DNA of 64,000 nt, from the NCBI GenBank assembly GCA_963818645.1, contig CAWFTF010000024.1, positions 61,493-125,492 on the forward strand. Direction: 5' to 3'. The translations under genes and the position numbers were made by a program. This stretch comes from an uncultured Acidobacteriota bacterium (GTDB lineage: Bacteria > Acidobacteriota > Vicinamibacteria > Vicinamibacterales > UBA2999). The notes under the pieces are model-generated. The model saw only the letters and a list, made by a program, of their open reading frames with translations. It searched no databases and was not told the origin of the DNA. Every line of letters begins with the position of its first letter. Positions within the stretch are counted from its first letter, which is position 1. Below are positions 5,399-60,026 of this stretch, in pieces.

Positions 5399-6637
5399 TT
5401 ATGTTCGATACTCGCCGTTGATGCGCACGTACTCGGCGCTGAGATCGCATGTCCAGATCGTCGCGGACTGATGTCCACCGGTGCCCAGGCTGACCTCGAT
5501 CTGGATGTCCTTGCCCTTCAAGTGCTCCGCCGCGCGCGGCGCTGCGTCGTCATGCGGCAGCCCATTCTCGAACAGGAGAATCTTGCCCACATGCACGGTG
5601 GCACGCTGCACGTCGAACTTCACGCCCGCGCGTCCGGCAGCCGCGACGATGCGACCCCAGTTCGGGTCCGCGCCGTGAACGGCGGTCTTGACCAGCGGAG
5701 AGTTGGCGATGGTGCGCGCAACCTGGCGCGCCTCGTCGATGGTCCGCGCGTCGCGGACTTCAACGCTGATCAACTTCGTCGCGCCCTCGCCACCGCGCAC
5801 GATCCCGAGCGCGAGCTCTCTCGACACGGTGAGGAAGGCTTCGATGAGAGCAGGATAGAGCTCCTCGTCGACCGTGACACCGCTCGCGCCTGACGCCAGG
5901 GCAAACAACGAGTCGTTGGTCGAGCACTCGCCGTCCACGGTGATGGCGTTGAATGTATCGCGTCCGGATTCGCGCAGCGCGCGATCGAGCAACGCCGGAC
6001 TGACGCCGGCGTCAGTCGTGAGGAAGCCGAGCATCGTGGCCATGTTGGGCTCGATCATGCCCGAGCCCTTCGCGGTGCCGCCAACCGTAAACGATCCCCG
6101 CCCTGTCTGGACAGTGACCGCGTACTCCTTCGGAAACGGATCCGTCGTCATGATGGCGCGCGCAGTCTCGCTGCCCTTGCCACGGGCGAGTGCGCCGACC
6201 GCACCGGCTATGCCGGTTGAGACGCGATCCATCTTGAGATTGACGCCAATAACGCCGGTCGATGCCACGAGCACTTCGCTCGGATCGCACGCCAGCGCCG
6301 CAGCCACATCGGTGGCCATGCGCCCGGCATCCGACATCCCCTGGTCGCCGGTGCAGGCGTTGGCGCAGCCGCTGTTCACCACGATCGCTCGCGCGACGCC
6401 ACCGGTCCGCGCGAGATGACGCTTCGAGATGAGCACCGGCGCCGCCTGCGCGAGGTTCGTCGTGAAGAGTCCGGCCGCAGAGGCGGCCGTATCGGCCGCA
6501 ATGACGGCGAGATCGAGCGCGTTGGCTTTGGCCTTGATCCCACAGTGAAGCGCGGCCGAGCGAAAGCCTTTCGGCGCCGTGATGCCCCCTTCGGTGGGGG
6601 TGATCGTCAGATCCCGAACGGTGATTGCCTCAGGCAT
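5399..6637 (-). CDS. argJ: glutamate N-acetyltransferase / ornithine acetyltransferase
   Basis: NSGCANACTG, IMTTD, KGSGMIEPNMATML, STND, GEGATK and SPLVKTA. Confidence 0.96.
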   Translation of the reverse strand: MPEAITVRDLTITPTEGGITAPKGFRSAALHCGIKAKANALDLAVIAADTAASAAGLFTTNLAQAAPVLISKRHLARTGGVARAIVVNSGCANACTGDQGMSDAGRMATDVAAALACDPSEVLVASTGVIGVNLKMDRVSTGIAGAVGALARGKGSETARAIMTTDPFPKEYAVTVQTGRGSFTVGGTAKGSGMIEPNMATMLGFLTTDAGVSPALLDRALRESGRDTFNAITVDGECSTNDSLFALASGASGVTVDEELYPALIEAFLTVSRELALGIVRGGEGATKLISVEVRDARTIDEARQVARTIANSPLVKTAVHGADPNWGRIVAAAGRAGVKFDVQRATVHVGKILLFENGLPHDDAAPRAAEHLKGKDIQIEVSLGTGGHQSATIWTCDLSAEYVRINGEYRT

Positions 6638-7217
6638 GTGTGGAGTGGGCAGGCACGCGCGACGACTGCATGCGAATGAGCGGCAACATCACCGCGTACT
6701 GCCCGCAGTGGCGGAACTGAGCGCACGTGCGGCAGTCGGCCTCGATCTTTTCCGGCACCCATGTGTGCGGCACGATCGAGAACCCCAGCTGGACGAAGTA
6801 ACCCGGCGTGTGGGTGAACGCCGTCAATGATTCGAAGCCTGATGCGAGCGCACGCTTTTCGAGCTCCCGCACCAGACGTCGGCCAACCCCGCAGGAGCGA
6901 ACGCCGCCTGCTACCACCAGGGAGCGCACCTCTGCTACCCGCCGGCTCAGAGGCGCCAGATCCGCACAGCCAACCACGCGCCCGTCCTCAACCGCAACGA
7001 CGAAGCGAGCGATGCGGGCGGCGATCTCGTCGCGGCTTCTCGGGAGCAGCCGTCCTTCGATCATGTGCTCGGACACGAGTCGATGGATGGCGTCGACGTC
7101 GGCGTCAGTCGCGGCACGCACGATCGACTCGACGTCGACTTCGTGCTCGACGACGCCGACCGAGCGCGATGCCGATCGGGACTTCATTTTCTGAATCTCG
7201 ATCACTGCTGTGCTCAT
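6630..7217 (-). CDS. short GNAT-type amino-acid N-acetyltransferase (ArgA-like)
   Basis: LLPRS..EI, AEVRSL, FVQLGF and KIEADCRTC..F..C; located inside the arg operon; own ATG at 7217 overlaps the argD stop (ATGA). Confidence 0.75.
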   Translation of the reverse strand: MSTAVIEIQKMKSRSASRSVGVVEHEVDVESIVRAATDADVDAIHRLVSEHMIEGRLLPRSRDEIAARIARFVVAVEDGRVVGCADLAPLSRRVAEVRSLVVAGGVRSCGVGRRLVRELEKRALASGFESLTAFTHTPGYFVQLGFSIVPHTWVPEKIEADCRTCAQFRHCGQYAVMLPLIRMQSSRVPAHSTHA

Positions 7218-8429
7218 GCGTGCACCTCGGCGGGGACTGCCGCCAGAACGGCATCGAGGATGTCGATCCCGGCATCGAGTCTCCGCTGCGGTGATCGTCA
7301 GTGGGGGAAGAAGCCGAACGACCTTCTCGTTCGTGCGATTCACGAGCAGTCCGCGCTCGCGCGCCAGATCGACGACCGCCGTGGCATCGACGCGGAGTTC
7401 GACTCCACGCATCAGCCCCGCGCCCCGCACCTCGACGATGACCGGGTGCTTGAGAGCGAGCGATCGAAGACGCCGTTCCAGGTGATCGCCGACCGAGCGC
7501 ACGTGATCGAGCAGGCCGCGCTCCATCAGTTCTTCGAGGAAGAACGACGCGGCGCGAGTCGCGAGCAGGTTGCCACCGTAGGTGGTGCCGTGGTCGCCGG
7601 TCGAGATCGTCTGCGCAACTTTCTCCGAGACCAGAGCGGCGCCGACCGGTACACCAGAGCCCAACGCCTTTCCGACTGACACCAGCGCCGGTTCCCAGCC
7701 GAGTGCCTGGAAGTGGAACGGGTGCCCGGTTCGACCGAGGCCGGTCTGCACTTCGTCTGCGATGAGCAACGTTCCGGTGCTGCGGCAGACGTCGGCTATC
7801 GCGTCGGAGAACGCGCGGGGCAGCGGGCGAACACCGCCTTCACCTCGGATCGGTTCCGCGATGATTGCTGCCGTTTTGTCGCTGACCGCCGCGTACAGCG
7901 ATTCGGGGGAATTCGGATCGACGAACGTGACGGGCCCGAGCAGCGGCGCAAAAGGCGTCCGATAGTGTTCGTCCCATGTCACCGAGAGCGCACCCATCGT
8001 GCGGCCGGCGAACGCATTCTCGATGGCGACGAATCCCGTGCGGTCCTTGACGCCCAGCGTGTGCCAATAGCGGCGCGCGAACTTGAGACACGCTTCGTTG
8101 GCCTCTGCGCCGCTGTTGCAGAAGAACACGCGGGACATCCCCGAGAGCTTCGCCAGGCGCGCCGCGGCCTCCGCCTGATACGGGTGGTAATAGAGGTTCG
8201 ACGTGTGCAGTAGCGTGTGTGCCTGGTCCGCGATTGCAGCGGCGAGACCCGGATGCGCATGTCCGAGTGACGCAACACCAATCCCGGAGACGAAGTCGAG
8301 GTACTCACGGCCATCGACGTCGTAGAGACGCGGGCCCTTGCCCTTCACGAACGCCACCGGCTGACGACGGTAGGTGTGGAGGACGTATTGGGATTCTCGC
8401 GTCTGTATGCTGTCGAAGGTCGTATTCAT
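7214..8429 (-). CDS. argD: acetylornithine aminotransferase; frameshift near 7275 gives an apparent fusion to the next gene
   Basis: Class III PLP aminotransferase motifs NSGAEANE, IADEVQTGLGRTG, GKALG, HGTTYGGN and RLLPPL. Confidence 0.92.
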
Positions 8430-9275
8430 CGCACCACCTGGGTGCACCCTGTAAGAGGCGTTGAGGAGTCGGCCAGGGTGCCCAGCCGAGTCTTCCTGCC
8501 GTCGGCGATTACCACATCGCCGACACCTGCCTGCAGCGCGGCGCGACAGGCCTGGAGCTTTGCCACCATGCCCTTGTTCGCCGTGCCGGCTTTGACCAGA
8601 CGCGCAGCGTCGCGCGTCGTCAGTCGTTCGATCGTCTGTCCCTGCTCGTCGAGCACTCCGGACGTTCCACCGGCGATGACAAGTCGCCGCGCACGAAGCG
8701 CCGAGGCGAGATGCGAGGCAAGCGTGTCTGCGTTGACGTTCAGCAGCTGGCCGTCTCGCGTAGCGCCGATACAAGCCACTATCGGCACATAGCCACCGGC
8801 GAGCAGATCGGTGAGCAGACGTGGCGCGCCGTTGCGCACGGGAGCCCCGACGAGACCAAGATCGACGTGCTCACCAGCCACCGTGACGATCGGCGCGGCC
8901 CGCTTCATCGTCGCAACTGTGGCATCGGCCCCCGTCAGTCCGACCGGGCTGCGCGCCGGCTCGGCGCACGGCCGCGACCAGGCGCGTGTTGATGGCTCCG
9001 GCCAGAACCGAAACAACCACGTCGAGCGTTCGGGCGTCGGTGACGCGAAGTCCGTCAACCTGCTGCTTCGGGATGCCAGCCGTATTGAGCGCGGCGTCGA
9101 TCTCGCGACCGCCTCCGTGCACGACGACGAGCGACGCGTGCTGCGACAGCCGAGCGATCGCCTTGGCGATGCTGTCCAGATCCTCTGGCTGCTCGAGGAG
9201 TTCACCACCGAGCTTCAGTACCAGGGCCGGCTTCTTCGCGCTGCGCACGCGAGTCGATACGGAGGTCCGCTTCAC
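8426..9275 (-). CDS. argB: acetylglutamate kinase; frameshift near 8960
   Basis: VLKLGG, VVVHGGG, GLRVTD, LNVNAD and GMVAKL. Confidence 0.92.
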
Positions 9276-10309
9276 AGCAGGCCCGTCCGTTCGTCGAGGC
9301 CCAGCATGACGTTGAGATTCTGGACTGCCGATCCCGCGGCGCCCTTCAACAGGTTGTCGATGATGGACACGAGCACGATACGGTTGCGCTCCGTATCCAC
9401 CTTCCAGCCGATGTCGCAGAAATTGGTGTGCGCGACGTGCTTGATCTCGGGCAATGCTCCGCCCGTGAGCCGGACGAACGGCGCATCGGCGTAGGCGGCA
9501 GTGAACGCATCGGCGACCTGCTGCTCGGTTGTGCCCGGTTTCAGGGTGCCGTAGATCGTTTCGAGGATCCCACGATCGAGCGGTACGAGATGCGGCACGA
9601 AGGTGACGCTCGACCCCAGCTCCTGCTCGATCTCCGCCGTGTGCCGGTGTTGAAACACGGCATACGCCGCCACGCTGCCGTGGTTCTCCGAAAAGTGCGT
9701 GCGCTCGGACGGTGTCTTGCCCGCGCCTGACACACCCGACTTCGCGTCCACGACGACCGGACCTGTCAGCAGTCCGGCCTGATGCAGCGGTTCGAGAGCA
9801 AGGAGCGCCGCCGTCGGATAGCAACCCGGATTCGAGACGAGGCGCGCACTGCGGATCTCGGCCTGATGGCCCTCGGTCAATCCGTACACGGTTCCTTCGG
9901 GAAGGTCAGTCGTTGCGGGATACCACCGCTGACGATCGGACGCGCTCCGGATACGGAAGGCGCCAGAGAGATCGATCACTCGTGCGCCGCGCTCGAGGAG
10001 CGTTGGCGCCAGTTCCGCCGACGCTGCTTCGGGAAGCGCGAGGAAGATCACATCGGCTTCGCTCACGAGGCGCTCCACGTCGAGCGGCTGCACCGCGCCG
10101 TCCCAGATGCGAGCCAGGGCTGGCAGCGGGCGCGGCGTGCTGGTGGCGCCGGAAGACATCGCAGCCGTCAGCGTCACGCGCGGATGCCGTGCAAGGATGC
10201 GCACCAGTTCCTGTCCGGCATAGCCGGTGGCGCCGGCTATGGCGACGCGCGTCAGGACTTTGTCGGTCGCGTTCGCGCGGTCACGTTCGAGCGGAGTCGT
10301 CAGGGCCAT
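9272..10309 (-). CDS. argC: N-acetyl-gamma-glutamyl-phosphate reductase
   Basis: GATGYAGQEL, DLSGAFR, NPGCYPT, SGVSGAG, HRHTAEI and DNLLKGAAG. Confidence 0.96.
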   Translation of the reverse strand: MALTTPLERDRANATDKVLTRVAIAGATGYAGQELVRILARHPRVTLTAAMSSGATSTPRPLPALARIWDGAVQPLDVERLVSEADVIFLALPEAASAELAPTLLERGARVIDLSGAFRIRSASDRQRWYPATTDLPEGTVYGLTEGHQAEIRSARLVSNPGCYPTAALLALEPLHQAGLLTGPVVVDAKSGVSGAGKTPSERTHFSENHGSVAAYAVFQHRHTAEIEQELGSSVTFVPHLVPLDRGILETIYGTLKPGTTEQQVADAFTAAYADAPFVRLTGGALPEIKHVAHTNFCDIGWKVDTERNRIVLVSIIDNLLKGAAGSAVQNLNVMLGLDERTGLL

Positions 10310-10328
10310 CGTATCCAAGTCTAGGGGA

Positions 10329-10366
10329 AAAGAATATTTATACATTCGAATGTATAAACAGTCAAG
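10329..10366. promoter_or_regulatory. tandem ARG boxes overlapping a sigma70 promoter for argC
   Basis: AAAGAATATTTATACATT-cg-AATGTATAAACAGTCAAG resembles two ARG boxes; minus-strand TTGACT(10365-10360)-N17-TATAAA; AT-rich gap between divergent argC and argR. Confidence 0.75.
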
Positions 10367-10414
10367 TTTTGAGTTATGCTGTGCATTCGGAAGTGACGGC
10401 AGAGAGACAGCGCC

Positions 10415-10867
10415 ATGAAAGCGCGACGCCAAACCGCCATCCTCGACATCGTTCGGCACGAGCCGGTCAGGAGCCAGGAGCAGCTTCGGCGGATGATCAA
10501 GGCCTCCGGCTACGACGTGACGCAGGCGACACTCTCGCGCGATATTCGTGAGCTCGGCCTCGTGAAGGGCGGGGTTGACGGTGCCTATCAGCCGCAGGGT
10601 CGAGTCGAGGTGAACGGACATACCGCGAAGGCGATGTTCCAGCGCGCCCTCGCGTCACAACTGCGGCGCATCGATCGTGTCCAGCAACTCGTGCTCCTGA
10701 AGACCGGCCTGGGCCACGCCCAGTCGTTGTGCGCCGCACTCGATGGCGCCGAGCTGCCTGACGTCGTGGGCACTCTGGCGGGAGAGGACACGATTCTGAT
10801 CATCACCGCGGACGCGCGCCGCGCCCGGACGCTGGTCAAGCGACTCGAGGAGATGTCACACGCATGA
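10415..10867 (+). CDS. argR: arginine repressor
   Basis: SQEQL, VTQATLSRDIREL and GTLAGEDT. Confidence 0.95.
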   Translation: MKARRQTAILDIVRHEPVRSQEQLRRMIKASGYDVTQATLSRDIRELGLVKGGVDGAYQPQGRVEVNGHTAKAMFQRALASQLRRIDRVQQLVLLKTGLGHAQSLCAALDGAELPDVVGTLAGEDTILIITADARRARTLVKRLEEMSHA

Positions 10868-11751
10868 ACACGATCGTCCTCGCCTATTCCGGCGGGTTCG
10901 CCTCATCCAACGCGATCCACTGGCTGATGGAGAAGTACCCGGCCGACGTCGTCACGGTCACGCTCGACGTGGGTCAGGGCGATGATCTCGCTGCGGTACG
11001 CGCTCGTGCGTTGTCGTGTGGCGCCGTGCGCGCGCATGCGATCGACGCACGCGAGGAGCTCGTGCGCGAGTTCCTGCTGCCGTCACTGGTTCGCGGCCCG
11101 TTGAGCGAGGGACCGGGTATCGCGGAGTTCACGCGCCCCCTGATCGCGCGAAAGCTGCTGGAGGTTGCTCGCATCGAGGGTGCCTCCATCGTCGCACATG
11201 CATCGCTCGATGAATCGCTCGATGCGGCTATTCGTGCTCTGGATCCTCGTGTCGAGATCCTTGCGCCGGCGCGCGAGTGGAAGATGGACGCGACAGAGTT
11301 GTCCGGCTACGCGCGCATGCACGGAGTGCCGCCGAGACCCACGTTCGAGCCGCAGTGCCGGATCGATCAAAGCCTCTGGGGACGGATGATCAGCTTCCGC
11401 GATCTGGATGGCCGGCCGAGCGAAGCCCACCTCAAGCCGCTATCGGCGTCGAACGAGGCCGCGCAGATCGCCCTTCAGTTCGAGGGTGGCGTTCCCGTTT
11501 CAATCAACGACGTGCCGATGCCTCCTGTCGAACTGGTCGAAAGCCTCGCGCTCATCGCCGGAGGGCATGGCGTTGGACGACTCGAGAGCACCAACAACGG
11601 GCGAACGGTCGTCTACGACGCCCCGGCGGCCATGGTGCTGCATACGGCTCGCGCGGCGCTGGGTGATCGCTCCGGCGTGGTGCGTTTGTCAGTTCTCAAT
11701 GGTGGTTGCACGGTTGTCGGTCGCAGCACAGAAGTGGTGAATCTCGCGTGA
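10864..11751 (+). CDS. argininosuccinate synthase-like protein, shortened and degenerate
   Basis: IVLAYSGG, RPLIA, APAREW, IDQSLWGR, HGVGR and VYDAPAA match ArgG, but the protein is 295 aa and key motifs are altered. Confidence 0.75.
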   Translation: MNTIVLAYSGGFASSNAIHWLMEKYPADVVTVTLDVGQGDDLAAVRARALSCGAVRAHAIDAREELVREFLLPSLVRGPLSEGPGIAEFTRPLIARKLLEVARIEGASIVAHASLDESLDAAIRALDPRVEILAPAREWKMDATELSGYARMHGVPPRPTFEPQCRIDQSLWGRMISFRDLDGRPSEAHLKPLSASNEAAQIALQFEGGVPVSINDVPMPPVELVESLALIAGGHGVGRLESTNNGRTVVYDAPAAMVLHTARAALGDRSGVVRLSVLNGGCTVVGRSTEVVNLA

Positions 11752-13124
11752 CACTCTGGTCCGGTCGCTTCGATACAGCTCCCGATCCCGCCGCGTTCGA
11801 CTTCGGCATCTCGTTCGGCTTTGACCGCGCGCTCTTTGAAGACGATGTCACCGGCAGCATCGCCTGGGCGGAGGCGCTTGCCGCCGCGGGAGTATTGTCG
11901 GCTGCCGATACGACGGCCATCGTCGACGCCCTGCGCGAGATTCTCGAGCAGGGTCGTCACGATCCGTCGTGGGTCGCCGGACCAGACGAAGACGTGCACA
12001 GCTTCGTCGAGCGTCAGTTGGTCGATCGCGTCGGTGATGCGGGCCGGCGCCTGCACACCGGCCGCTCGCGCAACGAGCAGGTCTCGCTCGACCTGCGACT
12101 CTATCTCCGTCGTCGTATCGGCCTGCTGCAGCAGGCGGTCGTAAACGTCGTGGCCGCGTGTGCCGATCAGGCGGATCAGGCAGGTGCGGCGCTCATGCCG
12201 TCGTACACCCACCTGCGTCGTGCGCAGCCGGTGCTCGTCGCGCATTTCTTCCTGTCGCACGCCGCGGCTGTTCGTCGTGACTACGGGCGTTTGGTGATTG
12301 CGGCGAACGAAGCCGATTCGTTGACGCTTGGCTCGGGCGCGATCGCCGGCACCAGCTACGGCGTCGACACGAAACTGCTCGCCCGCACGCTTGGATTCTC
12401 ACGGGTCGTTTCAAACAGCATGGACGCTTCCTCGGATCGCGATTTCGTGGCGTCGTTTCTGTATGCGATTTCGCTCGGGATGGTGCATCTGAGCCGGATG
12501 GCGGAAGACCTGATCATCTTCACGGGCGAGGAACACGGGTTCTTCGATCTGTCGGACGCCTCGGCGACTGGAAGCAGCATGATGCCGCAGAAGAAGAACC
12601 CCGATCCGCTGGAGCTGGTCCGCGGCAAAACCGGCCGGGCTATCGGGCGTCTCACCGGTTGGCTCGCGACGATGAAGGGGTTGCCCGGCGGGTACAACAA
12701 GGATCTACAGGAAGACAAAGAGGCGGTGTTCGACGCCGAAGCGACATACGCGGCTTCGCTGGCTGCAACGCATGCTGTGGTTTCCCGGCTCTCGGTCAAC
12801 TCGGAGCGGTCCGGTCGGGCGGCATCCGGCTTGCTGCTCGCGACTGACGTGGCGGACTACCTCGTTTCGCGTGGCATGCCGTTCCGGCGGGCCCACGAGG
12901 TTGTGGGCGCGATGGTCAGACGACTGCTCGCAGAAGGGCGCGACTTCAGCGCGCTGAGCATGGCTGAATGGCGCGAGGCGAGCGAGATGTTCGGAGACGA
13001 TGCGCCAAAGGCGGCGACAGCGCTGGCGTCGGTTCAGGCGCGTCGCACCCCTCAATCGACCAACCCTGACGCCGTGAAGGCGGCGCTTGCGGAGTGCCGT
13101 AAATGGGTCGCCTCTCCCTCGTAG
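11748..13124 (+). CDS. argH: argininosuccinate lyase
   Basis: LWSGRF, LHTGRSRNEQV, YTHLRRAQP, GSSMMPQKKNPD and YNKDLQEDKE; GTG start overlaps the upstream stop. Confidence 0.96.
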   Translation: MTLWSGRFDTAPDPAAFDFGISFGFDRALFEDDVTGSIAWAEALAAAGVLSAADTTAIVDALREILEQGRHDPSWVAGPDEDVHSFVERQLVDRVGDAGRRLHTGRSRNEQVSLDLRLYLRRRIGLLQQAVVNVVAACADQADQAGAALMPSYTHLRRAQPVLVAHFFLSHAAAVRRDYGRLVIAANEADSLTLGSGAIAGTSYGVDTKLLARTLGFSRVVSNSMDASSDRDFVASFLYAISLGMVHLSRMAEDLIIFTGEEHGFFDLSDASATGSSMMPQKKNPDPLELVRGKTGRAIGRLTGWLATMKGLPGGYNKDLQEDKEAVFDAEATYAASLAATHAVVSRLSVNSERSGRAASGLLLATDVADYLVSRGMPFRRAHEVVGAMVRRLLAEGRDFSALSMAEWREASEMFGDDAPKAATALASVQARRTPQSTNPDAVKAALAECRKWVASPS

Positions 13125-13224
13125 GGTTTGCTTTTGGGAAATTCCGTCTTTGGAGTTACACTCAGTCGGACCTTCACTCTGATTTTCACCCACCCCGCCC
13201 TGAAGGTTGCTTCCGGGGGAGTTC

Positions 13225-13986
13225 ATGCAGCAGCGCCGGGTTCGGCTCGGTGACGTCCTAGACGACTATTGTTCGCGCGAGCGCCGCATCACGAACCATG
13301 CGGTGGTCGCGATGATCGAAGACGAGGTGAAGCAGACACGCTGCACCACGTGCGACACCGAGCATGAGTACAAGCACGCCAAAATGCCAGCACCGCGACG
13401 CAAGAAGCCTGTCGCCGCGGCAGCACTCGTGTCCGCGGAGGCGACTGAGTCGCCAACCCTGATGTCCGACGACGAAGAGACTGTCGAAGAGATGATCGAC
13501 GACGCGCCCGTACCTCCATCATCACTGGAAGCTGCGAAAGAATCCGAGGCCCCAGAAGTTGCCGGGGTGGTTGACGACGAACCCCCGGCCGAGGGGACAG
13601 AAGACGAGTGGGTTCATCGACCGCTGATTCGCGCCACGCTTCCACGACCAGAGGGGCAAACGCCTGAGCGGAAACCGACCGACTTCACGATCCGTCAGAA
13701 CAGCGGTCGGTTCGACGGCGAGCGAAATGGCAACAAGCCTCGCGGGAACAGGCCGGGTCGCCACGCTCAGGGACAAGGGCAGGGACAGTCACGATTCGGC
13801 GGCGGCGGTTCACGCCAGGGATCGGGATACGGCTCGCGTCAAGGTGGTGGGCAGCAGGGCGGCAATCAACAGCGCCACGGCGGCAATCGTCCAGGCCCAT
13901 CGTCCGGACAGCGCGGCGGACGTCCCGGCCAGGGTGGTGGCAGCAATCGGCCAGGACAAGGCCGCGGCCCCAAGCGCGGGCGGTAG
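13225..13986 (+). CDS. hypothetical protein: Cys/His N-terminal domain, acidic linker, Gly/Arg/Gln-rich tail
   Basis: DDYCSRE...H...RCTTCDTEH, followed by low-complexity segments; GGGGGAG RBS upstream. Confidence 0.7.
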   Translation: MQQRRVRLGDVLDDYCSRERRITNHAVVAMIEDEVKQTRCTTCDTEHEYKHAKMPAPRRKKPVAAAALVSAEATESPTLMSDDEETVEEMIDDAPVPPSSLEAAKESEAPEVAGVVDDEPPAEGTEDEWVHRPLIRATLPRPEGQTPERKPTDFTIRQNSGRFDGERNGNKPRGNRPGRHAQGQGQGQSRFGGGGSRQGSGYGSRQGGGQQGGNQQRHGGNRPGPSSGQRGGRPGQGGGSNRPGQGRGPKRGR

Positions 13987-14072
13987 TCCGGTTCCGGGTC
14001 GTCGGTCGTCAGTCCAGCCACATGACCTGACCGCGGGTCGAAGACTGTAGACCGAAGATCCGACCAGAGACT
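13987..14072. repeat. degenerate inverted heptamer repeat tract
   Basis: GGTCGTC-like units facing GACCGAA/GACTGTA-like units. Confidence 0.4.
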
Positions 14073-14080
14073 CCCTTTAC

Positions 14081-14854
14081 ATGACTGATTTCACTGGCAA
14101 ACATGGCCTGATCGTTGGTGTGGCCAACAAGCGCTCCATTTCGTGGGCGATCGCGCAGGCGGTCGCACGACGGGGAGCCCGATTGGCGCTGACCTATCAG
14201 GGTCGATTCGAAGAGCACGTCAACGATCTGTCGCAAGGGCTGGAGCAGTCTTCGCTCGTGCTGCCGTGCGACGTGTCATCGGACGCTCAAATCGCAGCCG
14301 TGTGTGAGAAGGTCGATCAGGAGTTCGGCGGGCTCGATTTCGTCGTGCATGGTGCCGCATTCGCTCCTCGCGAAGAACTCGAGGCGCCGTTCGTGAACAC
14401 GACGCGCGATGGATTTCGCGTGGCGCTGGACATCTCTGCGTACTCGCTCATCGCGCTGACGCGGGCTGCGATGCCGCTGTTCGAAAAACGCGGCAGTGGA
14501 TCGGTCGTGACGCTGTCGTACCTCGGGAGCCAGCGCGTGTTTCCGAACTACAACGTGATGGGCGTTGCCAAAGCGGCGCTCGAAGCCACCGTGCGTTATC
14601 TCGCCGCGGACGTCGGCCCCAAAGGGGTTCGCGTCAATGCAGTGTCGGCAGGACCGATCAAGACGCTGGCTGCTGCCGGCATCAAAGGGTTTTCAAACAT
14701 CCTGCACGTGTATCCGGATCGGGCGCCGCTGCGTCGTAACGTCGAGACGTCCGAAGTCGCAGAGGCGGCCGCTTTCCTCTTGAGTGATGCCGGCAAAGGC
14801 ATCACCGGCGAAGTGCTCATCGTCGACGCCGGCTACCACGTGACTGGGATGTAG
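14081..14854 (+). CDS. fabI: enoyl-ACP reductase
   Basis: GVANKRSISWAIA, DISAYSL, YNVMGVAKAALE and SAGPIKTLAA. Confidence 0.95.
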   Translation: MTDFTGKHGLIVGVANKRSISWAIAQAVARRGARLALTYQGRFEEHVNDLSQGLEQSSLVLPCDVSSDAQIAAVCEKVDQEFGGLDFVVHGAAFAPREELEAPFVNTTRDGFRVALDISAYSLIALTRAAMPLFEKRGSGSVVTLSYLGSQRVFPNYNVMGVAKAALEATVRYLAADVGPKGVRVNAVSAGPIKTLAAAGIKGFSNILHVYPDRAPLRRNVETSEVAEAAAFLLSDAGKGITGEVLIVDAGYHVTGM

Positions 14855-14913: not shown

Positions 14914-16753
14914 TTACGAAACAGCGCGATTGTCTGACGCGGCTGGCGGGTGAGACGCGGCGCGTGCCTGCACATCGCGCTTGTACATCACCTTGTTCCG
15001 ATACATACGGCGGTCGGCCTTCGCCATCAGCACTTCGTAGGTATTTCCATCGTGCGGGAACACCGCAGCACCCGCGCTGATCGAGAGCGGCATCCGTACG
15101 CCTGGTTTGGCTTCGAACACCAGGCTCTCGACGGCCTCCTGCAGTTCGAGTCTCTTGTACTCAGCCTCGTCCCAACCGCAGCCCGCGAGCACGACGAAGA
15201 ACTCGTCGCCGGCGTAGCGGACGCAGACGTCGTACGGACGAATGGCGCCACGGAGCACCTGAGCGATTTCGCGCAGCGCGCGGTCGCCGACGTGATGTCC
15301 GAACGTGTCGTTGATGTCCTTGAAGTCGTTCAGGTCCATCACGAGGAGCGACACTTCCGCGTTGCCGCGCTCGGCACGAGCGAGCTCGCGTCCAAGATGG
15401 TTGACCATGAATCGCGTGTTCGGCAGGTTCGTCAACGGATCCGTCAGCGACGCTTCATGCGTCTGCTCGAAGACGATCGCGTTGTGGATCACCGCCGCGG
15501 CCTGTTCGCACACGCGATCGAGCAGGCGGCGATGGTCGTCGCCGTAGAAGCTCGGCGTCGTGTGATACACGGCCAGCGTGCCGATGACGCGGTCCCCGAG
15601 GAGCAGCGGGCACACCAGTGCTGACTGCAGTGTCGTGGGCAGTGACGAGCCCCCGGCCTCGAGATCGCCGCTCGGGCGGGCATTGACGAGCGGGCGCCGG
15701 TTGCGTGCCACCCACCCGGTGATGCCCTGACCACCTTTCAACGTGAGCTGCTGCATCAGCTCGTAGTCGGTGCCCGTTGCGAACCGGCAGGTCAGAAGAT
15801 TCTGGCTTTCGTCGTACTGGAACAACGTGCATGCCGAGAACGGCACCAGGCTCGTCAGCTTCGAGGCGATGAGCGCCATCGTGTCCGACACACCCAAGAC
15901 TGGTGCCCATCGTCTGAGCGATCTGATAGAGCGCGTAGATTTCGCCGTGCGCGATCGCGATGTCATTGAACACCGACGACTTCGATCGATCGGTTCGCGT
16001 CGCCTGTGCGGACGTGGCATCGACCGGACCGCTCTTGCGCTCCTTGTCGGCGCTCTCCGCCTCGTGGCGAACCTGAGGCAGGACCTGAACGAACGCCTGG
16101 ACGCATCGCGGATCGAGCGCTTTGCCGGCTTCCTGCTCGATCAACGCAACGGCCGCCTCGAACGTCATCGCCTCGTGGTAAGGGCGATTCGAGGTCAGCG
16201 CGTCGAAGTAGTCGACGAGAAACAGAATCCTCGCGCCGAGCGGGATGTCGTCACCTTTCAGGCCGCGCGGGTATCCACGTCCATCCCACCGCTCGTGGTG
16301 ATTCTGAATGAGCGGTGCGACCGGGTACGAAAAGGGGACAGCCGCGATGATATCCGCACCGACCTGCGGATGTGCCTGTACCTTCTGGAACTCTTCGGCG
16401 GTCAGAGGTCCAGGCTTCGAGAGGATGTGCTCCGGCACAGCGAGCTTGCCGATGTCGTGCAACAGCGCCGCCGTACGCACCGCCTGGGTCTCGCCGGCCG
16501 ACATGCCGAGCTCTCGAGCCACTGCCGTCGCGTAAAGCTGCACGCGGCGGATATGGTTCTCGGCCGTTCCGTCCTTTGCGTCGATCGCGCGCGCGAGCGC
16601 TTCGATCGTCGCCAGGTGCAGTTCGGCCAGCTGCTCAGCGCGTCTCTGCTCGGCCCTGAATCGAGCCTTGAAGATGCGATACGCGCGCAGTCCGAAATAG
16701 AGCACTCCCCAGACTAGTGCCAGGCTAGTTAGCCAAAGCGGCGGCTGGGGCAT
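14914..16753 (-). CDS. membrane-anchored HD-GYP + GAF + GGDEF c-di-GMP turnover protein; frameshift near 15895
   Basis: One N-terminal TM; HDIGK and HHERWDGRGYP; GAF (GITGWVARNRRP, SALVCPL); TDPLTNLPN, DINDTFGH and RYAGDEF. Confidence 0.9.
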
Positions 16754-16834
16754 TACGTGCTCCTAGCGGACGTCAGCAGGGAGCCAGATGATTGTGACGC
16801 GTTTTCTCATACTCGTTCCCCCGGAGGTTTCGTG

Positions 16835-19006
16835 TTAATGCCTACCGTGCCCGACGAACGGATCAAGTTCTTCGGCCCAGAGCACTTCCTCGAGTGCTTC
16901 AGACGTGCTCCAGACGATGTTGGTGCTCCACACGATGTTGTCATCGCGGCTGGTGCTCCAGACGATGTTGTCGTCACTCTTGGTGCTCCACACGATGTTG
17001 TCGTTGGCATCACCAGCAGTGCTCCACACGATGTTGTCGTCGCGGAGGGTACTCCACACGATGTTGTCGTCGCGGGTCGCCGTGCCCATGACGATGCCGT
17101 TCTTCTGCGAGCCCCACACCGTCTGCTGACAGTTGCGTCCGGCGCAGTCGTTGCCCCACACGATGTTCTGGAGGGTGCCGGTGCTCCACACGATGTTGTC
17201 GCCGCCCTTGGTGCTCCACACGATGTTGTCGTCACCACGAGTGCTCCAGACGATGTTGTCGCCTGTGCCCGTGCTCCACACGATGTTGTCGTTGCGGGCG
17301 GTGCTCCACACGATGTTGTCGTCGCCACCAGTGCTCCAGACGATGTTGTCGTCACCACGAGTGCTCCAGACGATGTTGTCGTCGGCGCCAGTGCTCCACA
17401 CGATGTTGTTCGCAGTGCTCCACACGATGTTGTCGTCGAGCCGCGAGCCCCATACCACTCGTGCACCGGTTGATGTCTCGAGCGAGCCCCAGCGGACGCC
17501 CGTGCTCCATGCATTGCTGCCCGGGAGCGGCATGCCGCCCGTGATGCGGTAGTTGCCCCAGATGAGATGACGCGCCCACGGCACCCAGTCGCCCTGTATG
17601 GTGTCGCCCATGTCGCCGAGGGTCGTCGTCGCCGGTGACGCGAAGAACTTCGCAAGACGCACTGCGCCGCTCGCGTTCAGGATCCCCGCGCCCTGGACCA
17701 GCAAGCTGGTGCTGCTGCGAAGCTCCGCGGTGTACTGCAGAATCGCCTTGACCGCGTTCGGCGTGAGCTTCGGGTTTTCCTCGAGCATCAACGCCACAGT
17801 GCCTGACACCACCGGAGCGGCCATGCTCGTGCCGCTCAGGCTCATGTAAGGCTTGAACGCGAGGTTGAGCTGAGGCGAGCCCGACACGAGCATCGAGGGC
17901 AGCGTGGCATAGAGCAAGCTATGTGAATCCGCCACCGACTCGATTCCAACGCCAGGCGCCACGAGGTCCGGCTTGGCCTGGAAGTCGATCCACGTCGGAC
18001 CACTCGAGCTGAACTTCGCAATCGTGTCGTTCCCGCGCTGGCTGCTCGCCTCTTCGCTCGACGCGCCGACCGTTAGAACCCAGGGAGCGTTGCCGGGCGA
18101 CGTGATGCCACCCGTCTGCGTCTGTCCCTGCGTGTTCTGCCCGAGGTTGCCGGCAGAAGCGACCACGACGATGCCAGCGTCGACAGCGCGCTTCGCGGCC
18201 AGCGTGAGCGGGTCGAGCCAGTAGGACTCGAACACGCCCGCGGCAACCGAGAGGTTGATGACGCGAATGTTGTATGTGCTCTTGACCGAGATCGCGTAGT
18301 CAATCGCCGCGATCACGTCGCTCATGTAGCCGCGACCGAGCCCGTCCATGACCTTCAGGCCAACCAGCTTCGCTCCCGGCGCGATTCCCTTGTGCTTACC
18401 GCCCGAGTCGTATCCTGAGCCCGCAATGATGCCCGCGACGTGCGTGCCATGGCCGTAGTCGTCGTAGGAAATGTTCGACCACACGCTCGTGCCGTTGGTG
18501 AAGTCCTTGAAGTGCGCGACGCGCGAATTGCCTCGAGTGAGGTCGTCGTGCCAATTCGTGATGCCGGAGTCGATCACCGCCACGCCAACGCCCTTACCCG
18601 TCACGTTCATCTGCTGGCGTGCGAGCGAGGCTCCCGTCGAGAGGCCGGTCCGCTCCATCGTCGCGAAGATCGGCCGATCGAGATAGACGCCCTCGACGCG
18701 CGGATCCGCAGCGATCCTCGAAAGCTCGACGTTCTCCACTTCCGCAACCTGGCCCCTGCGGCCGAGGCGTCGTCCGGCTTCGGCTCGTTTCCCGAGCAGT
18801 CGCACGTCGCTATCGCCGTTGAACTGGATGATGACTCGAGTGCGGCCGGACAACTCGCCCGCGCGGTGCCTCAGGACCTTATCCAGCTTGTCGGCCCTGT
18901 CGCCGCTGCCACTTGATTGCGCCATGGCACTAGGGGCTATAAGCAGGACTGCGGCCACTGCCAGAAGTGCTGAGGTTGCGGTCCGGAGCGATCGTGTAAT
19001 CGACAT
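16835..19006 (-). CDS. secreted S8 (subtilisin-family) serine peptidase with a C-terminal Trp-repeat tail
   Basis: Signal peptide ending ..APSAMA; triad VIDSG / HGTHVAG / GTSMAAP; NIVWST repeats. Confidence 0.93.
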   Translation of the reverse strand: MSITRSLRTATSALLAVAAVLLIAPSAMAQSSGSGDRADKLDKVLRHRAGELSGRTRVIIQFNGDSDVRLLGKRAEAGRRLGRRGQVAEVENVELSRIAADPRVEGVYLDRPIFATMERTGLSTGASLARQQMNVTGKGVGVAVIDSGITNWHDDLTRGNSRVAHFKDFTNGTSVWSNISYDDYGHGTHVAGIIAGSGYDSGGKHKGIAPGAKLVGLKVMDGLGRGYMSDVIAAIDYAISVKSTYNIRVINLSVAAGVFESYWLDPLTLAAKRAVDAGIVVVASAGNLGQNTQGQTQTGGITSPGNAPWVLTVGASSEEASSQRGNDTIAKFSSSGPTWIDFQAKPDLVAPGVGIESVADSHSLLYATLPSMLVSGSPQLNLAFKPYMSLSGTSMAAPVVSGTVALMLEENPKLTPNAVKAILQYTAELRSSTSLLVQGAGILNASGAVRLAKFFASPATTTLGDMGDTIQGDWVPWARHLIWGNYRITGGMPLPGSNAWSTGVRWGSLETSTGARVVWGSRLDDNIVWSTANNIVWSTGADDNIVWSTRGDDNIVWSTGGDDNIVWSTARNDNIVWSTGTGDNIVWSTRGDDNIVWSTKGGDNIVWSTGTLQNIVWGNDCAGRNCQQTVWGSQKNGIVMGTATRDDNIVWSTLRDDNIVWSTAGDANDNIVWSTKSDDNIVWSTSRDDNIVWSTNIVWSTSEALEEVLWAEELDPFVGHGRH
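16904..17437 (-). repeat. intragenic tandem repeat, mostly 30-nt units encoding (D/N/G)DNIVWSTxx
   Basis: 15 NIVWST plus 1 NIVWG; plus-strand core GTGCTCCA(C/G)ACGATGTT. Confidence 0.95.
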
Positions 19007-19025
19007 ATCGGCGGCTAGCTCATGG

Positions 19026-19040
19026 GCAAGAGTTCTGCCG
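19026..19040 (-). promoter_or_regulatory. sigma54 (-24/-12) promoter of the peptidase gene
   Basis: Minus strand CGGCAGAACTCTTGC (GG-N10-GC), 20 nt upstream of ATG 19006. Confidence 0.65.
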
Positions 19041-19147
19041 TAATCCGCATGTTTGCAAATGCGATCGACTAAAAGCTTAGGAATGAGCAACTTGCGGGAT
19101 AAAATCGACGTGCCATAATCACTTCCCGATTACGAACTCAGCTAAGT

Positions 19148-19282: not shown

Positions 19283-20614
19283 TTACTCTTCTTTGCTTCG
19301 GAATGCGCGGGCCTCAGGTTCGAGGCCGTATTCCACGATTTTTCGGTAGAGGGTGCCCCGGCTGATGTCCAGGAGCCGGGCGGCTTCCTTCTTGTTCCAG
19401 GCGGTGCCTTCGAGCACGCGCACGATGTGCGCACGCTCGGCCTCAGCCAGCGTTGGCACACGCGGCGGCGCGTCGGCGGTGACCGTTGCCTGTGGGTGAA
19501 GGAACTCGATGTCCGTATCTCTGATCACCCGGCCAGGAGCTGACAGCGCAGCGCGCGACACGGTGCTCTCGAGTTCACGGATGTTCCCTGGCCAGGGGTA
19601 GGAGTGGAGTCGTGCGATCGCCTCGGGCGAGAAGGCCTTCGCATCGAGCGGGAGTCCGTTCGTTGCGCAGTAGCGTGCAATGAATCGATTCGCGAGCACC
19701 CCTATGTCTACGGGGCGCTCACGCAGCGACGGCAGCCGAATCGAGAACGCATTCACGCGGTAGTACAAATCTTCACGGAAGCGGCTATCGCGCACGAACT
19801 GATCGAGTGGCCGGTTCGTCGCGGAGATCAGGCGGAAATCCACCTGCACGGATCGCTGTCCACCCAGTCGTTCGAACCGACGGTCTTCGAGGACGCGCAA
19901 CAGCTTTGCTTGAGCGACAAGAGAAAGGTCTCCGATCTCGTCCAGGAAGAGCGTGCCGCGATCGGCCAGTTCCACGCGGCCCGGTTTGCGATCGTGTGCA
20001 CCTGTGAACGCGCCCTTCTCGTATCCGAAAATTTCGGATTCGAAGAGCGTGTCGGGCAATGCTGCGCAGTTCACGGCCTGGAAGTTTTCGGTCCCGCGAC
20101 GACTCAGTTCGTGAATCATGCGCGAGACGACTTCTTTGCCGGAGCCGGTGGGCCCAAGAATCAGGACGGAGATGTCCGACTTGGCTGCCGTGCGAATCCA
20201 CTCGAACACGACGAGCATCTTCTCGTCGCGGCCGATCATTTCGCGGAAGCGCTGAACTGACGGCGCCTGGTCCTCGAGACTGATGTCCGCGCGCCGCTCG
20301 AGGAAGGTATCGAGGAGTCGGTTGAGGACGTCGCTCTCCGGGCGGATGGCCGAAAACTGCGCCGGGCTTCCCTGAGCGCGGCCGACGATGCCGAATTCAA
20401 CGAGCTCGCGAAGGCAGTTCTCGATGTCCAGGCGCAGACGCCCGAACGTCGCCATCAGTGATTCGACTTCAAAGGCCTCGCCTGGACGCGCCGAGAGAAA
20501 GCGCAGCAGTCCGGCCCGGAGAGGGGACTGGACGAGCGAGCGAAACCTCGCCTCCTGATCCCCGTTGACGTCAGGCCTCGGCATCGTGACCGCTCGATTG
20601 GTGGCTGCACTCAT
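19283..20614 (-). CDS. sigma54-dependent transcriptional activator (bEBP) with an atypical N-terminal domain
   Basis: GPTGSGKE, ESEIFGYEKGAFTGA, LFLDEIG, FREDLYYR, WPGNIREL and Fis-type HTH (AARLLDISRGTLYRK). Confidence 0.95.
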   Translation of the reverse strand: MSAATNRAVTMPRPDVNGDQEARFRSLVQSPLRAGLLRFLSARPGEAFEVESLMATFGRLRLDIENCLRELVEFGIVGRAQGSPAQFSAIRPESDVLNRLLDTFLERRADISLEDQAPSVQRFREMIGRDEKMLVVFEWIRTAAKSDISVLILGPTGSGKEVVSRMIHELSRRGTENFQAVNCAALPDTLFESEIFGYEKGAFTGAHDRKPGRVELADRGTLFLDEIGDLSLVAQAKLLRVLEDRRFERLGGQRSVQVDFRLISATNRPLDQFVRDSRFREDLYYRVNAFSIRLPSLRERPVDIGVLANRFIARYCATNGLPLDAKAFSPEAIARLHSYPWPGNIRELESTVSRAALSAPGRVIRDTDIEFLHPQATVTADAPPRVPTLAEAERAHIVRVLEGTAWNKKEAARLLDISRGTLYRKIVEYGLEPEARAFRSKEE

Positions 20615-25628: not shown

Positions 25629-26292
25629 TCACCGAATCGGGATTTGCCGGTAGCGGGTTGGGTCCTCAATCCCCGCCTCACGGAACGCATCACGCCGCTC
25701 GCGACACTTGCTGCATTCACCGCAGTGCAGCCCATCGCGCGGGTTCATGCACGAGAGCGTCAACTCGAGTGGAACCCCGAGCTCGCGACCCAGGCGAATG
25801 ACGTCGCTCTTATGCATCTGCATGAAAGGCGCGTCGACGCGGATCGGGTGAGCGAGTCCCAGCGACATCGCCTTCGCCAGTGCGTCGAAGAAGTCCGGCG
25901 TTGCGTCAGGAAACGGATTTCCGGCGAGCGTCCCAATCGCAATACGCGAAATGCGTCGCTGCGCGCAGTGAATCGCCGCTTTGCTCAACAACACCAGATT
26001 GCGCCCCGTGAGATACACGTCCTCGTCGGGCGTGTCGAAACCGGGCGGCGTTCCTGTGAGTGCCCAGTGGTTCGCGGGGTAGAGATCCGCGACCGTGAAC
26101 GCCAGGCGGGCAATCGGTTGCACACCGCGATAGGCAGGCGTGGCGAGCAGTCGCTCCGCAAGTCGTAGTCTCCTCCGACTCCCAGGCGAGCCCGCAGCTC
26201 ACATAGATCGGATGCACCGTCGAGGCCCGAGCTTCCGAGGCAGCGAGGACCGCACTATCGAGTCCGGCCGAAAAAAGAACGCCAACTACCAA
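25629..26292 (-). CDS. queC: 7-cyano-7-deazaguanine synthase (QueC family); frameshift near 26160; start uncertain
   Basis: VLFSAGLDS PP-loop, GRNLVLL, FPDA..DF and the SC..P...HCGECSKC.ER Zn site. Confidence 0.8.
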
Positions 26293-26367
26293 TTCCCAAC
26301 TCCCAACTCCCAAGACTCCAACCCATCCCACTGTCTTTTGGGCGTTGGAAATTGGGCTTTGGGAGTT
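26283..26367. repeat. inverted heptamer repeat tract (CCAACTC / GAGTTGG family)
   Basis: CCAACTC-like units face TTGGGCG/TTGGGAG-like units between divergent queC and queD. Confidence 0.7.
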
Positions 26368-39424: not shown

Positions 39425-39483
39425 TTTCAATTCCCAATTCCAATGGAGACGATCAGTGTTGGGAGTTGGGAGTTGGGAGTTGA
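39425..39483. repeat. inverted heptamer repeat tract (CCAATTC / GAGTTGG family)
   Basis: TTCCCAA-like units facing TTGGGAG x3. Confidence 0.7.
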
Positions 39484-43028: not shown

Positions 43029-43104
43029 GTCCTCAGTCCTCGGTCCCCGGTCCACAGTCCTGGTAAGACCCACTGTGGACTGAGGACTGTGGACTGGAGA
43101 CTGA
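43029..43104. repeat. inverted heptamer repeat tract (GTCCTCA / TGAGGAC family)
   Basis: GTCCTCA/GTCCTCG/GTCCCCG/GTCCACA facing TGTGGAC/TGAGGAC/TGTGGAC. Confidence 0.75.
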
Positions 43105-59704: not shown

Positions 59705-59784
59705 TCGTCTCCTCCCGGCGTCCTTCGCGCCGGAGCACCTTGCGACTCGCGCGAGCGCGATCGAAGGCAGGGACTGATAGTTCA

Positions 59785-59962
59785 GGTGCGAGGTATCCTG
59801 GCTCGCGGAGCTGCGATGATTCGATCTGCCTTCCCGAGTCCGGCGGGTCTAGACCACCTGAACTCAGTGGCGTGTGCGATCGAATCTCTCCGCTTACAGT
59901 GGCGGGACCGCGTGGGTTTTCCACCCACTTCCCTCATCTCACCCGACGGGAGCTTTCCAGCG
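59785..59962 (-). promoter_or_regulatory. cobalamin riboswitch
   Basis: Minus strand has AGGGAA..GGTG.AAA.CC, CGGTCCCGCCACTGT, GCCACTG, GGGAAGG and GAGCCAGGA.ACCT, upstream of btuD. Confidence 0.92.
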
Positions 59963-60026
59963 GCGAGTATAGCACGCTAGAATTTACGAAGGTTTTGCCC
60001 ATCCAAATCGATGGGCGCTCACTGCT

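Follow-up and report, generated by a model that had tools for sequence, protein, structure and literature searches.

A repeat-tailed S8 protease linked to MASE9-type membrane sensors, and its candidate role as a self-processing precursor of signal peptides

Introduction

In the Phr/RRNPPA systems of Bacillota, a Sec-exported precursor gives rise to a 5-10-aa peptide that is freed by extracellular proteases, with the receptor gene adjacent and sometimes with several copies of the peptide; the propeptides are 50-120 aa long, contain 1-4 copies and no protease, and their receptors are cytoplasmic and are reached after import (PMC11343458). The KEX2-processed repeat proteins of fungi (KEPs) and their alpha-pheromone precursors are secreted proteins with near-identical motifs that an endoprotease cuts into peptides (PMC6339444). 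For the MASE9 sensor domain, the ligand is unknown and binding within the membrane has been proposed (bioRxiv 2021.11.05.467447); the main text of that preprint contains neither 'subtilisin' nor 'peptidase'.

Here we describe a tailed S8 protease from the genome of a soil bacterium of the Acidobacteriota, encoded in a stretch of 64,000 nt of DNA that we refer to as the window. The conserved, undescribed module of protease, repeat and sensor to which it belongs is real; a literature search, with most subscription journals outside its coverage, found no published description of it, and most JGI-sourced homologues are annotated 'serine protease AprX'. The tailed S8 would work like Phr pheromones and KEPs, yet it fails membership of both groups.

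Results

The repeat array sits at the 3' end of a minus-strand ORF (16835-19090) of 751 aa, counted from a TTG. The likely start is the ATG at 19006 (Met29), giving a 723-aa protein; residue numbers are nevertheless counted from the TTG, and all operon features given below lie on the minus strand. The region 18920-19006 holds this start and a Sec-type signal peptide, recognised by eye from its basic and hydrophobic stretches and an AMA-Q motif; Ala57 is nearly invariant among 110 aligned sequences, and the protein is predicted to be exported. The propeptide (18671-18901) adopts a confident fold in the AlphaFold model, with ProN-Tk-SP (3afg) as the top fold match. The S8 catalytic domain (17684-18598) was assigned from Pfam (PF00082, E 1e-53; residues 165-469, 183 bits against a cut-off of 21.8), alignment to 3afg and a survey of its sites. 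The triad D174, H214 and S422 and the oxyanion Asn N315 are all present, and among 106 tailed S8s the triad His is found in 106, the Ser in 105 and the Asp in 103. Ala283 and Thr330 replace glycines of Tk-SP in the alignment to 3afg and presumably narrow the S1 pocket; site 330 is non-Gly in 95 of the 106 tailed enzymes and Gly in 6 of 11 tail-less ones.

A beta appendage (17441-17623; residues 490-550, pLDDT 76-90) with the degenerate units HLIWG, NAWST, VRWGS and VVWGS lies ahead of the array. The looser units HLIWG, VRWG and VVWG that an earlier note on this DNA had placed there are thus present, and they fold within this confident appendage on the protease. In the AlphaFold2 model, built on the 110-sequence alignment, enzyme and appendage fold and the first repeat copies pack onto the protease; residues 552-751 have pLDDT <50 and form no coil, so that the structural model proposed in the earlier note as a check returned an unfolded tail and no solenoid.

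The tail had been described as 15 NIVWST and one NIVWG in two blocks of 10 and 6 around CAGRNC, counts that we reproduced from the ORF. Block 1 (17150-17431, pLDDT <50) contains 9 NIVWST and 1 NIVWG with acidic spacers, and block 2 (16904-17065) contains 6 NIVWST by sequence count; the Cys pair CAGRNC (17129-17146) is part of a conserved insert of ~30 aa, and a Cys pair is found in 118 of 121 homologues. The period is mostly 10 aa, as claimed (11 of the 14 within-block intervals, the others being 8, 12 and 6). Tandem Repeats Finder reports a period of 30, 16.9 copies and a score of 298 for the array, compared with scores of 50-65 for the remaining arrays of the window; short arrays with a period of 7 or 14 nt occur at 26282-26313, 39458-39482 and 43072-43103. 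The tail is acidic (30 D/E versus 11 K/R) and has no Pfam or NCBIfam match over cut-off, nor a Hexapep match at E 0.1, and it matches no known family of binding or anchoring domains; a WG-type Pfam repeat was rejected as its identity after the negative Pfam search.

Cores are constant over 1739 copies in 121 proteins while the spacers drift, in agreement with the invariant core and varying spacers reported earlier. Two further claims held only in part. R or K precedes 9 of the 16 cores here, but basic residues before DD are not conserved, no spacer column exceeding 11% R among the 121 homologues, and R/K cleavage signals were accordingly rejected. Likewise, conservation had been placed at the protein level because synonymous codons differ: Val, Thr and one Ser codon do vary, but Asn is AAC in 15/15 and Ile is ATC in 15/15, and this restricted variation indicates that the copies are homogenised at the DNA level too. 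A comparison of copy number, also proposed in the earlier note, gave 9-21 copies in the 121 homologues and confirms that the array is real; in NIVWS-type homologues the period is 10 aa in 1288 of 1618 intervals, 85 of the 121 have 14-16 copies, and the tails of the NIVWST clade carry a C-terminal cap. Over 16697-17249, and again over 17358-17758, contigs from run X1 agree with the window without gaps and differ from it by one change at most (17250-17357 lies outside the listed pieces), and P0003, which is 98% identical, carries the same 15 copies. Because independent contigs agree and homologues carry the array, an assembly artefact was rejected as the source of the repeat number.

The operon runs in the order sigma-54 activator, S8 and HD-GYP-GAF-GGDEF gene, the last 81 bp downstream of S8. 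The activator (19283-20614; PF00158, E 7e-66, and HTH_8) is a sigma-54 enhancer-binding protein whose N-terminal domain (~120 aa) is unclassified. The same activator is found upstream of S8 in L032, L072-L075, L077, L079 and L080; in L216 and L220 it is immediately followed by a full MASE9-HD-GYP-GAF-GGDEF gene, without an intervening S8. A motif search predicted a sigma-54 -24/-12 promoter, GG-N10-GC, at 19026-19040 (background 0.08 per 500 nt), and the motif is also present in eight of nine relatives examined, being absent in L380. No terminator-like fold was found between activator and S8 (z -0.39), and no riboswitch near the S8 gene in the window or in five related loci. Contigs from RNA runs cover parts of the operon, a coverage that is no proof of transcription. 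Elsewhere in the window are a cobalamin riboswitch (59774-59990, minus strand; 82 bits) and, at 6630-14854, genes that by eye belong to arginine biosynthesis, together with one resembling an enoyl-ACP reductase gene, none of these genes being related to the tail.

The gene behind S8 (14914-16753) encodes, according to Pfam and alignments to L080 and L072, a membrane-anchored HD-GYP-GAF-GGDEF protein in which only the last MASE9 helix is kept: it has no match to PF20972 and aligns to the full L080 sensor from residue 224 of the latter, that is, from the last MASE9 helix onward, and it also aligns to the intact 630-aa protein of L072. An extra base at 15892 splits the gene and is absent from the X1 and X3 contigs; the frameshift is likely an assembly error and, since the base is missing from the contigs of other runs, frameshifts of this assembly are doubtful in general.

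Of 7991 candidates scored in a search with the tail, 1315 matched; where the matches listed have a taxon label, it is Acidobacteria or Vicinamibacterales. At E <=1e-40, 42 of 151 genomes from the Acidobacteriota encode the S8. With a Micromonospora seed, the figure for the seed's phylum was 30 of 151, three of these 30 being unpublished genomes that no later count includes; with a gammaproteobacterial seed it was 1 of 251, namely the seed itself. Acidobacterial cores are NIVWG, NILWG, SVVWG, RLVWG, GFLWS, QVIWT, GVLVS, GTLIA and GLTLA, with a minimum period of 6, and those of Actinomycetota are GSAWY, GARWY, GATWK and GKSWS, with a period of 5. Family tails were recorded with periods of 6 to 79 aa, 2 to 29 copies and spacers of 1 to ~80 aa, the period switching among 5, 6, 8, 10 and 12; in one actinobacterial branch the spacing of Trp is strict and the unit sequence is different each time. 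For an actinobacterial homologue, AlphaFold gave a model of low quality along its whole length (mean 49.6), in which the tail could not be interpreted. Genome-wide, a DNA pattern for Trp at period 6 was met by at least 121 stretches, mostly noise, of which at least 5 hold family S8 tails (L097, L098, L125, L157 and L165). One locus (L071:3195-19338) has eight consecutive tailed S8 genes (GFLWS, GFVWS, GFMWS) behind a GGDEF/sigma-54 protein.

Repeats without a protease were found in a single sequence, P0351, of 176 aa, with a signal-peptide-like start and NIVWG repeats. When 121 genomes of the order were searched with it, the repeats lay nearly always in long S8 frames, and those short frames that were checked proved to be frameshifted or truncated S8s. 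Within this genome, we found no mini-protein ending in a core. NIVWG-type S8s (L370-L387, L034, L037, L045, L081, L083 and L091) have a RimJ/RimL-like GNAT as the next gene, often in tandem S8-GNAT cassettes; of 20 NIVWG-type loci, 16 have a GNAT and not a sensor behind S8, and a GNAT is also found there in some Trp-less loci. There is no such GNAT in this genome.

To define the unit, we recorded where tails end. Among 149 acidobacterial tails, 23 end at most 6 residues past the last Trp, and of these 23, 10 do so at W+2, one at +1 and one at +3; the 17 actinobacterial rows include a spurious one, and 14 of them end at W+1. Tails that end on a complete unit point to a hexapeptide unit, here NIVWST, with a cut after it.

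In Actinomycetota, MASE9 is encoded behind 20 of the 21 tailed S8s and behind none of the 6 without a tail. These 27 loci were selected by S8 alone; the MASE9 profile used includes 11 actinobacterial rows, and an acidobacterial-only profile had already matched 12 of these short loci. Behind 74 tailed acidobacterial S8s, from 60 loci chosen best matches first, we found MASE9 (23), another S8 (11), HD-GYP without a MASE9 match (8), GNAT (7), a contig end (5), an activator (2) or something else (18), with L042 and L076 reassigned to 'tailed' by hand. At the genome level, S8 is present in 23 of 25 genomes with MASE9, against ~7 expected from 42 of 151 genomes with S8, although kin are not independent. 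Starting from MASE9, 18 of 40 matches lie directly behind a tailed S8 and two more <4 kb away; the other 20 have no S8 close by, 19 of them having none in ~7 kb on each side and one having an S8 at 8 kb.

The MASE9 domain is widespread (15,046 representatives at E <=0.001), and its profile has a weak resemblance to ECF S-components, which bind ligands (8 of 75 rows; 4hzu, E 0.13). Many top matches of the profile (P0363-P0405) are ~460 aa long and contain two MASE9 stretches, which leave little space for other domains. MASE9 also occurs alone, in genes of 220-310 aa that follow S8 in L036, L039, L041, L042, L056, L057, L060, L125 and L241; in L041 the next gene encodes an HD-GYP protein with terminal helices only, possibly a split sensor like that of the window. 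We found no convincing small precursor beside orphan MASE9 genes; in L213, just upstream of such a gene, lies an ORF of ~53 aa that has a hydrophobic stretch and what looks like a ribosome-binding site.

The phylogenies of S8 and MASE9 (38 pairs) share most clades, with 26 core changes on either tree. Once shared descent was accounted for, the similarity of cores did not significantly follow that of MASE9 (partial r 0.09, p 0.19; 38 pairs), and the same core (SVVWG, TVVWG) is paired with unrelated MASE9 clades.

Loss of MASE9 is characteristic of the clade to which the window belongs. In NIVWS loci, 7 of 7 visible HD-GYP neighbours are without MASE9, only one or two helices being left; beyond these seven, one locus has an unrelated gene at the sensor position and one is at a contig end. 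The sister loci L080 and L380 consist of activator, NIVWG-tailed S8 and complete MASE9-HD-GYP-GAF-GGDEF. Core Ser codons are all AGY in nine NIVWS-type genes and, AGY being one change from a Gly codon, the change of core Gly to Ser and the loss of the sensor domain look like a single event. An orphan MASE9-GGDEF of the NIVWG-receptor clade occurs in three congeners and is absent from this assembly.

The two tailed S8s of this genome differ in core, NIVWS versus NILWG. The second, on contig C15 (L031:7967-11870), contains 18 NILWG with a period of 8, is split over frames and lies ~120 bp before the only MASE9 gene of the genome (MASE9-HD-GYP-GAF; PF20972, 37 bits against a cut-off of 24.3); no second MASE9 was found in this assembly, which is 91.7% complete. 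A complex prediction for the C15 MASE9 domain with a 37-aa stretch of its cognate repeats scored 0.01 and was uninformative either way. This C15 pair of NILWG-tailed S8 and MASE9 is the best one for experiments.

Discussion

We propose that the tailed S8 processes itself and is the precursor of hexapeptide signals acting on c-di-GMP, a reading in which our confidence is evenly divided. The upstream activator would drive the operon via sigma-54, and the S8, once exported, would activate itself. The tail would then be cut after NIVWST, with Val at P4, Trp at P3, Ser at P2 and Thr at P1, and the acidic spacer trimmed off; we take Val at P4 and Ser at P2 to suit the preferences of subtilisins. Peptides ending in NIVWST would bind the pocket of a MASE9-type membrane sensor and so would change c-di-GMP levels. 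The window's own sensor cannot be the receptor in its present form and, since the adjacent sensor is without MASE9 in the NIVWS clade, either the receptor must act in trans, as another MASE9 of the same cell or of its neighbours, or the peptide has been repurposed.

The earlier note had offered two readings of the tail, cleavable cassettes and a solenoid or amyloid. The former fits best, because cores are invariant, spacers vary, tails end on complete units, the triad is intact and the family is linked to membrane sensors; the latter finds no support here (pLDDT <50, no Pfam repeat match). The main clue lies in the neighbouring genes, which the note had overlooked. Fixed cores combined with changing periods and copy numbers would be the anatomy of cassettes, and the protease-free P0351 and the acidic, unfolded tail also seem to favour a precursor. 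Several observations argue against it: the 7/7 MASE9-less neighbours of the NIVWS clade, the lack of core-MASE9 tracking, the pairing of the same cores with unrelated MASE9 clades and the constrained period and copy number. To be set against it as well are MASE9 without S8 in 20 of 40 cases, GNAT in 16 of 20 NIVWG-type loci, the drift of the actinobacterial unit and P0351 being a lone sequence without context.

More broadly, these loci might define a new signalling class in Acidobacteriota and Actinomycetota, a tentative proposal that we hold to be somewhat more probably wrong than right. One secreted polypeptide would be both protease and multi-copy pheromone precursor, its 5-6-residue peptides would be what MASE9 binds, as a membrane receptor similar to S-components whose output goes through c-di-GMP enzymes and kinases, the dozens of core types would be dialects, and the NIVWST clade would signal in trans or jam the NIVWG channel. 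In this family, the candidate MASE9 ligands can be read off as defined sequences of 5-6 residues, each from a gene next to that of its sensor, and the question can therefore be addressed with synthetic peptides. If the proposal is true, abundant soil phyla have a peptide signalling tied directly to c-di-GMP, with the protease as its own pheromone precursor; under the rival readings too, an undescribed protease-sensor module has been hidden behind the label 'AprX'.

Among the alternatives, the tail could remain uncut and serve as a multivalent binding or anchoring arm that tethers the protease to MASE9 or to a surface, brings sensors together or presents the sensor to the protease for cutting. 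Such an arm accounts equally well for the MASE9 linkage and the invariant cores; it also explains why the NIVWST clade has a Cys insert, a C-terminal cap and a constrained period and copy number, and the packing of the first copies on the protease in the AlphaFold model is in line with it. However, the tail matches no known binding or anchoring family, and an arm predicts neither tail ends on complete units nor a protease-free repeat protein; we consider it unlikely, if still a serious contender.

A beta-solenoid or functional amyloid, acting as matrix or adhesin under the control of c-di-GMP and sigma-54 and perhaps released by the protease, appears rather improbable. Hexapeptide-like features do exist in the family, in that the Trp-less L070 passes the Pfam Hexapep cut-off (40 versus 27 bits), making it the one of six acidobacterial relatives tested to meet PF00132, two more fall below the cut-off, two of five actinobacterial tails weakly match pentapeptide models, also below cut-off, and, in the Atlas neighbours of the tail, 16% and 28% of members have Hexapep. 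The period of 10 in most of the NIVWST clade and the strict Trp spacing in Actinomycetota would also suit a coil. Nevertheless, AlphaFold2 with 110 sequences produced no solenoid (pLDDT 25-36), the window's tail has no Hexapep match, the period changes within the family, relatives with 2-6 copies 11-79 aa apart presumably could not wind a coil alone, acidic spacers would oppose stacking, and the sensor linkage is left unexplained.

Very improbable, in our judgement, is that the released peptides are a product or weapon of RiPP type with the GNAT as tailoring or immunity enzyme: the frequent GNAT of NIVWG-type and some Trp-less loci would agree with this, but the genome studied here lacks it, no tailoring enzymes were noticed among the neighbours of the operon, and linkage to the sensor dominates in other loci. 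Finally, a neutral slippage array or an assembly artefact is hardly credible and largely refuted, for despite homogenised codons and an assembly with indel errors, cores stay invariant over drifting spacers, independent contigs agree and the presence of a tail tracks MASE9.

How does the tailed S8 compare with known systems? It resembles Tk-SP and the AprX-labelled S8A subtilases with C-terminal extensions in its propeptide and S8 fold, 3afg being the best match in both sequence and fold; unlike in Tk-SP, the match stops at residue 478, and no solved structure covers the appendage or the repeats. With the left-handed beta-helices of the hexapeptide type (PF00132) and with pentapeptide repeat proteins (PF00805) it shares a short period of Gly and hydrophobic residues, and Trp-less relatives score against these models, whereas the window's tail has no match, a period of 10 and no predicted fold. 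The Trp of the repeat would, moreover, fall at an inward-facing position in hexapeptide and pentapeptide folds, which we count as a difference.

Kex2 is itself a subtilase, and the cleavage sites of fungal KEPs are dibasic. Like KEPs, the tailed S8 is a predicted secreted protein with near-identical motifs; KEPs differ in being eukaryotic and cut by a protease in trans, and basic sites are not conserved in the tailed S8, in which the limit of 11% R applies to every spacer column. The neighbours of the family share the architecture of MASE9-HD-GYP(-GAF-GGDEF) sensors (bioRxiv 2021.11.05.467447), whereas the window's own neighbour keeps the last helix only. In comparison with Phr/RRNPPA systems, the tailed-S8 family has 2-29 copies fused to an S8, here as a 723-aa protease fusion and not a small propeptide; the neighbours in the window are a sigma-54 activator and an HD-GYP-GAF-GGDEF protein in place of an RRNPPA receptor gene, and the candidate receptor of the family is a membrane MASE9 protein with c-di-GMP or kinase output.
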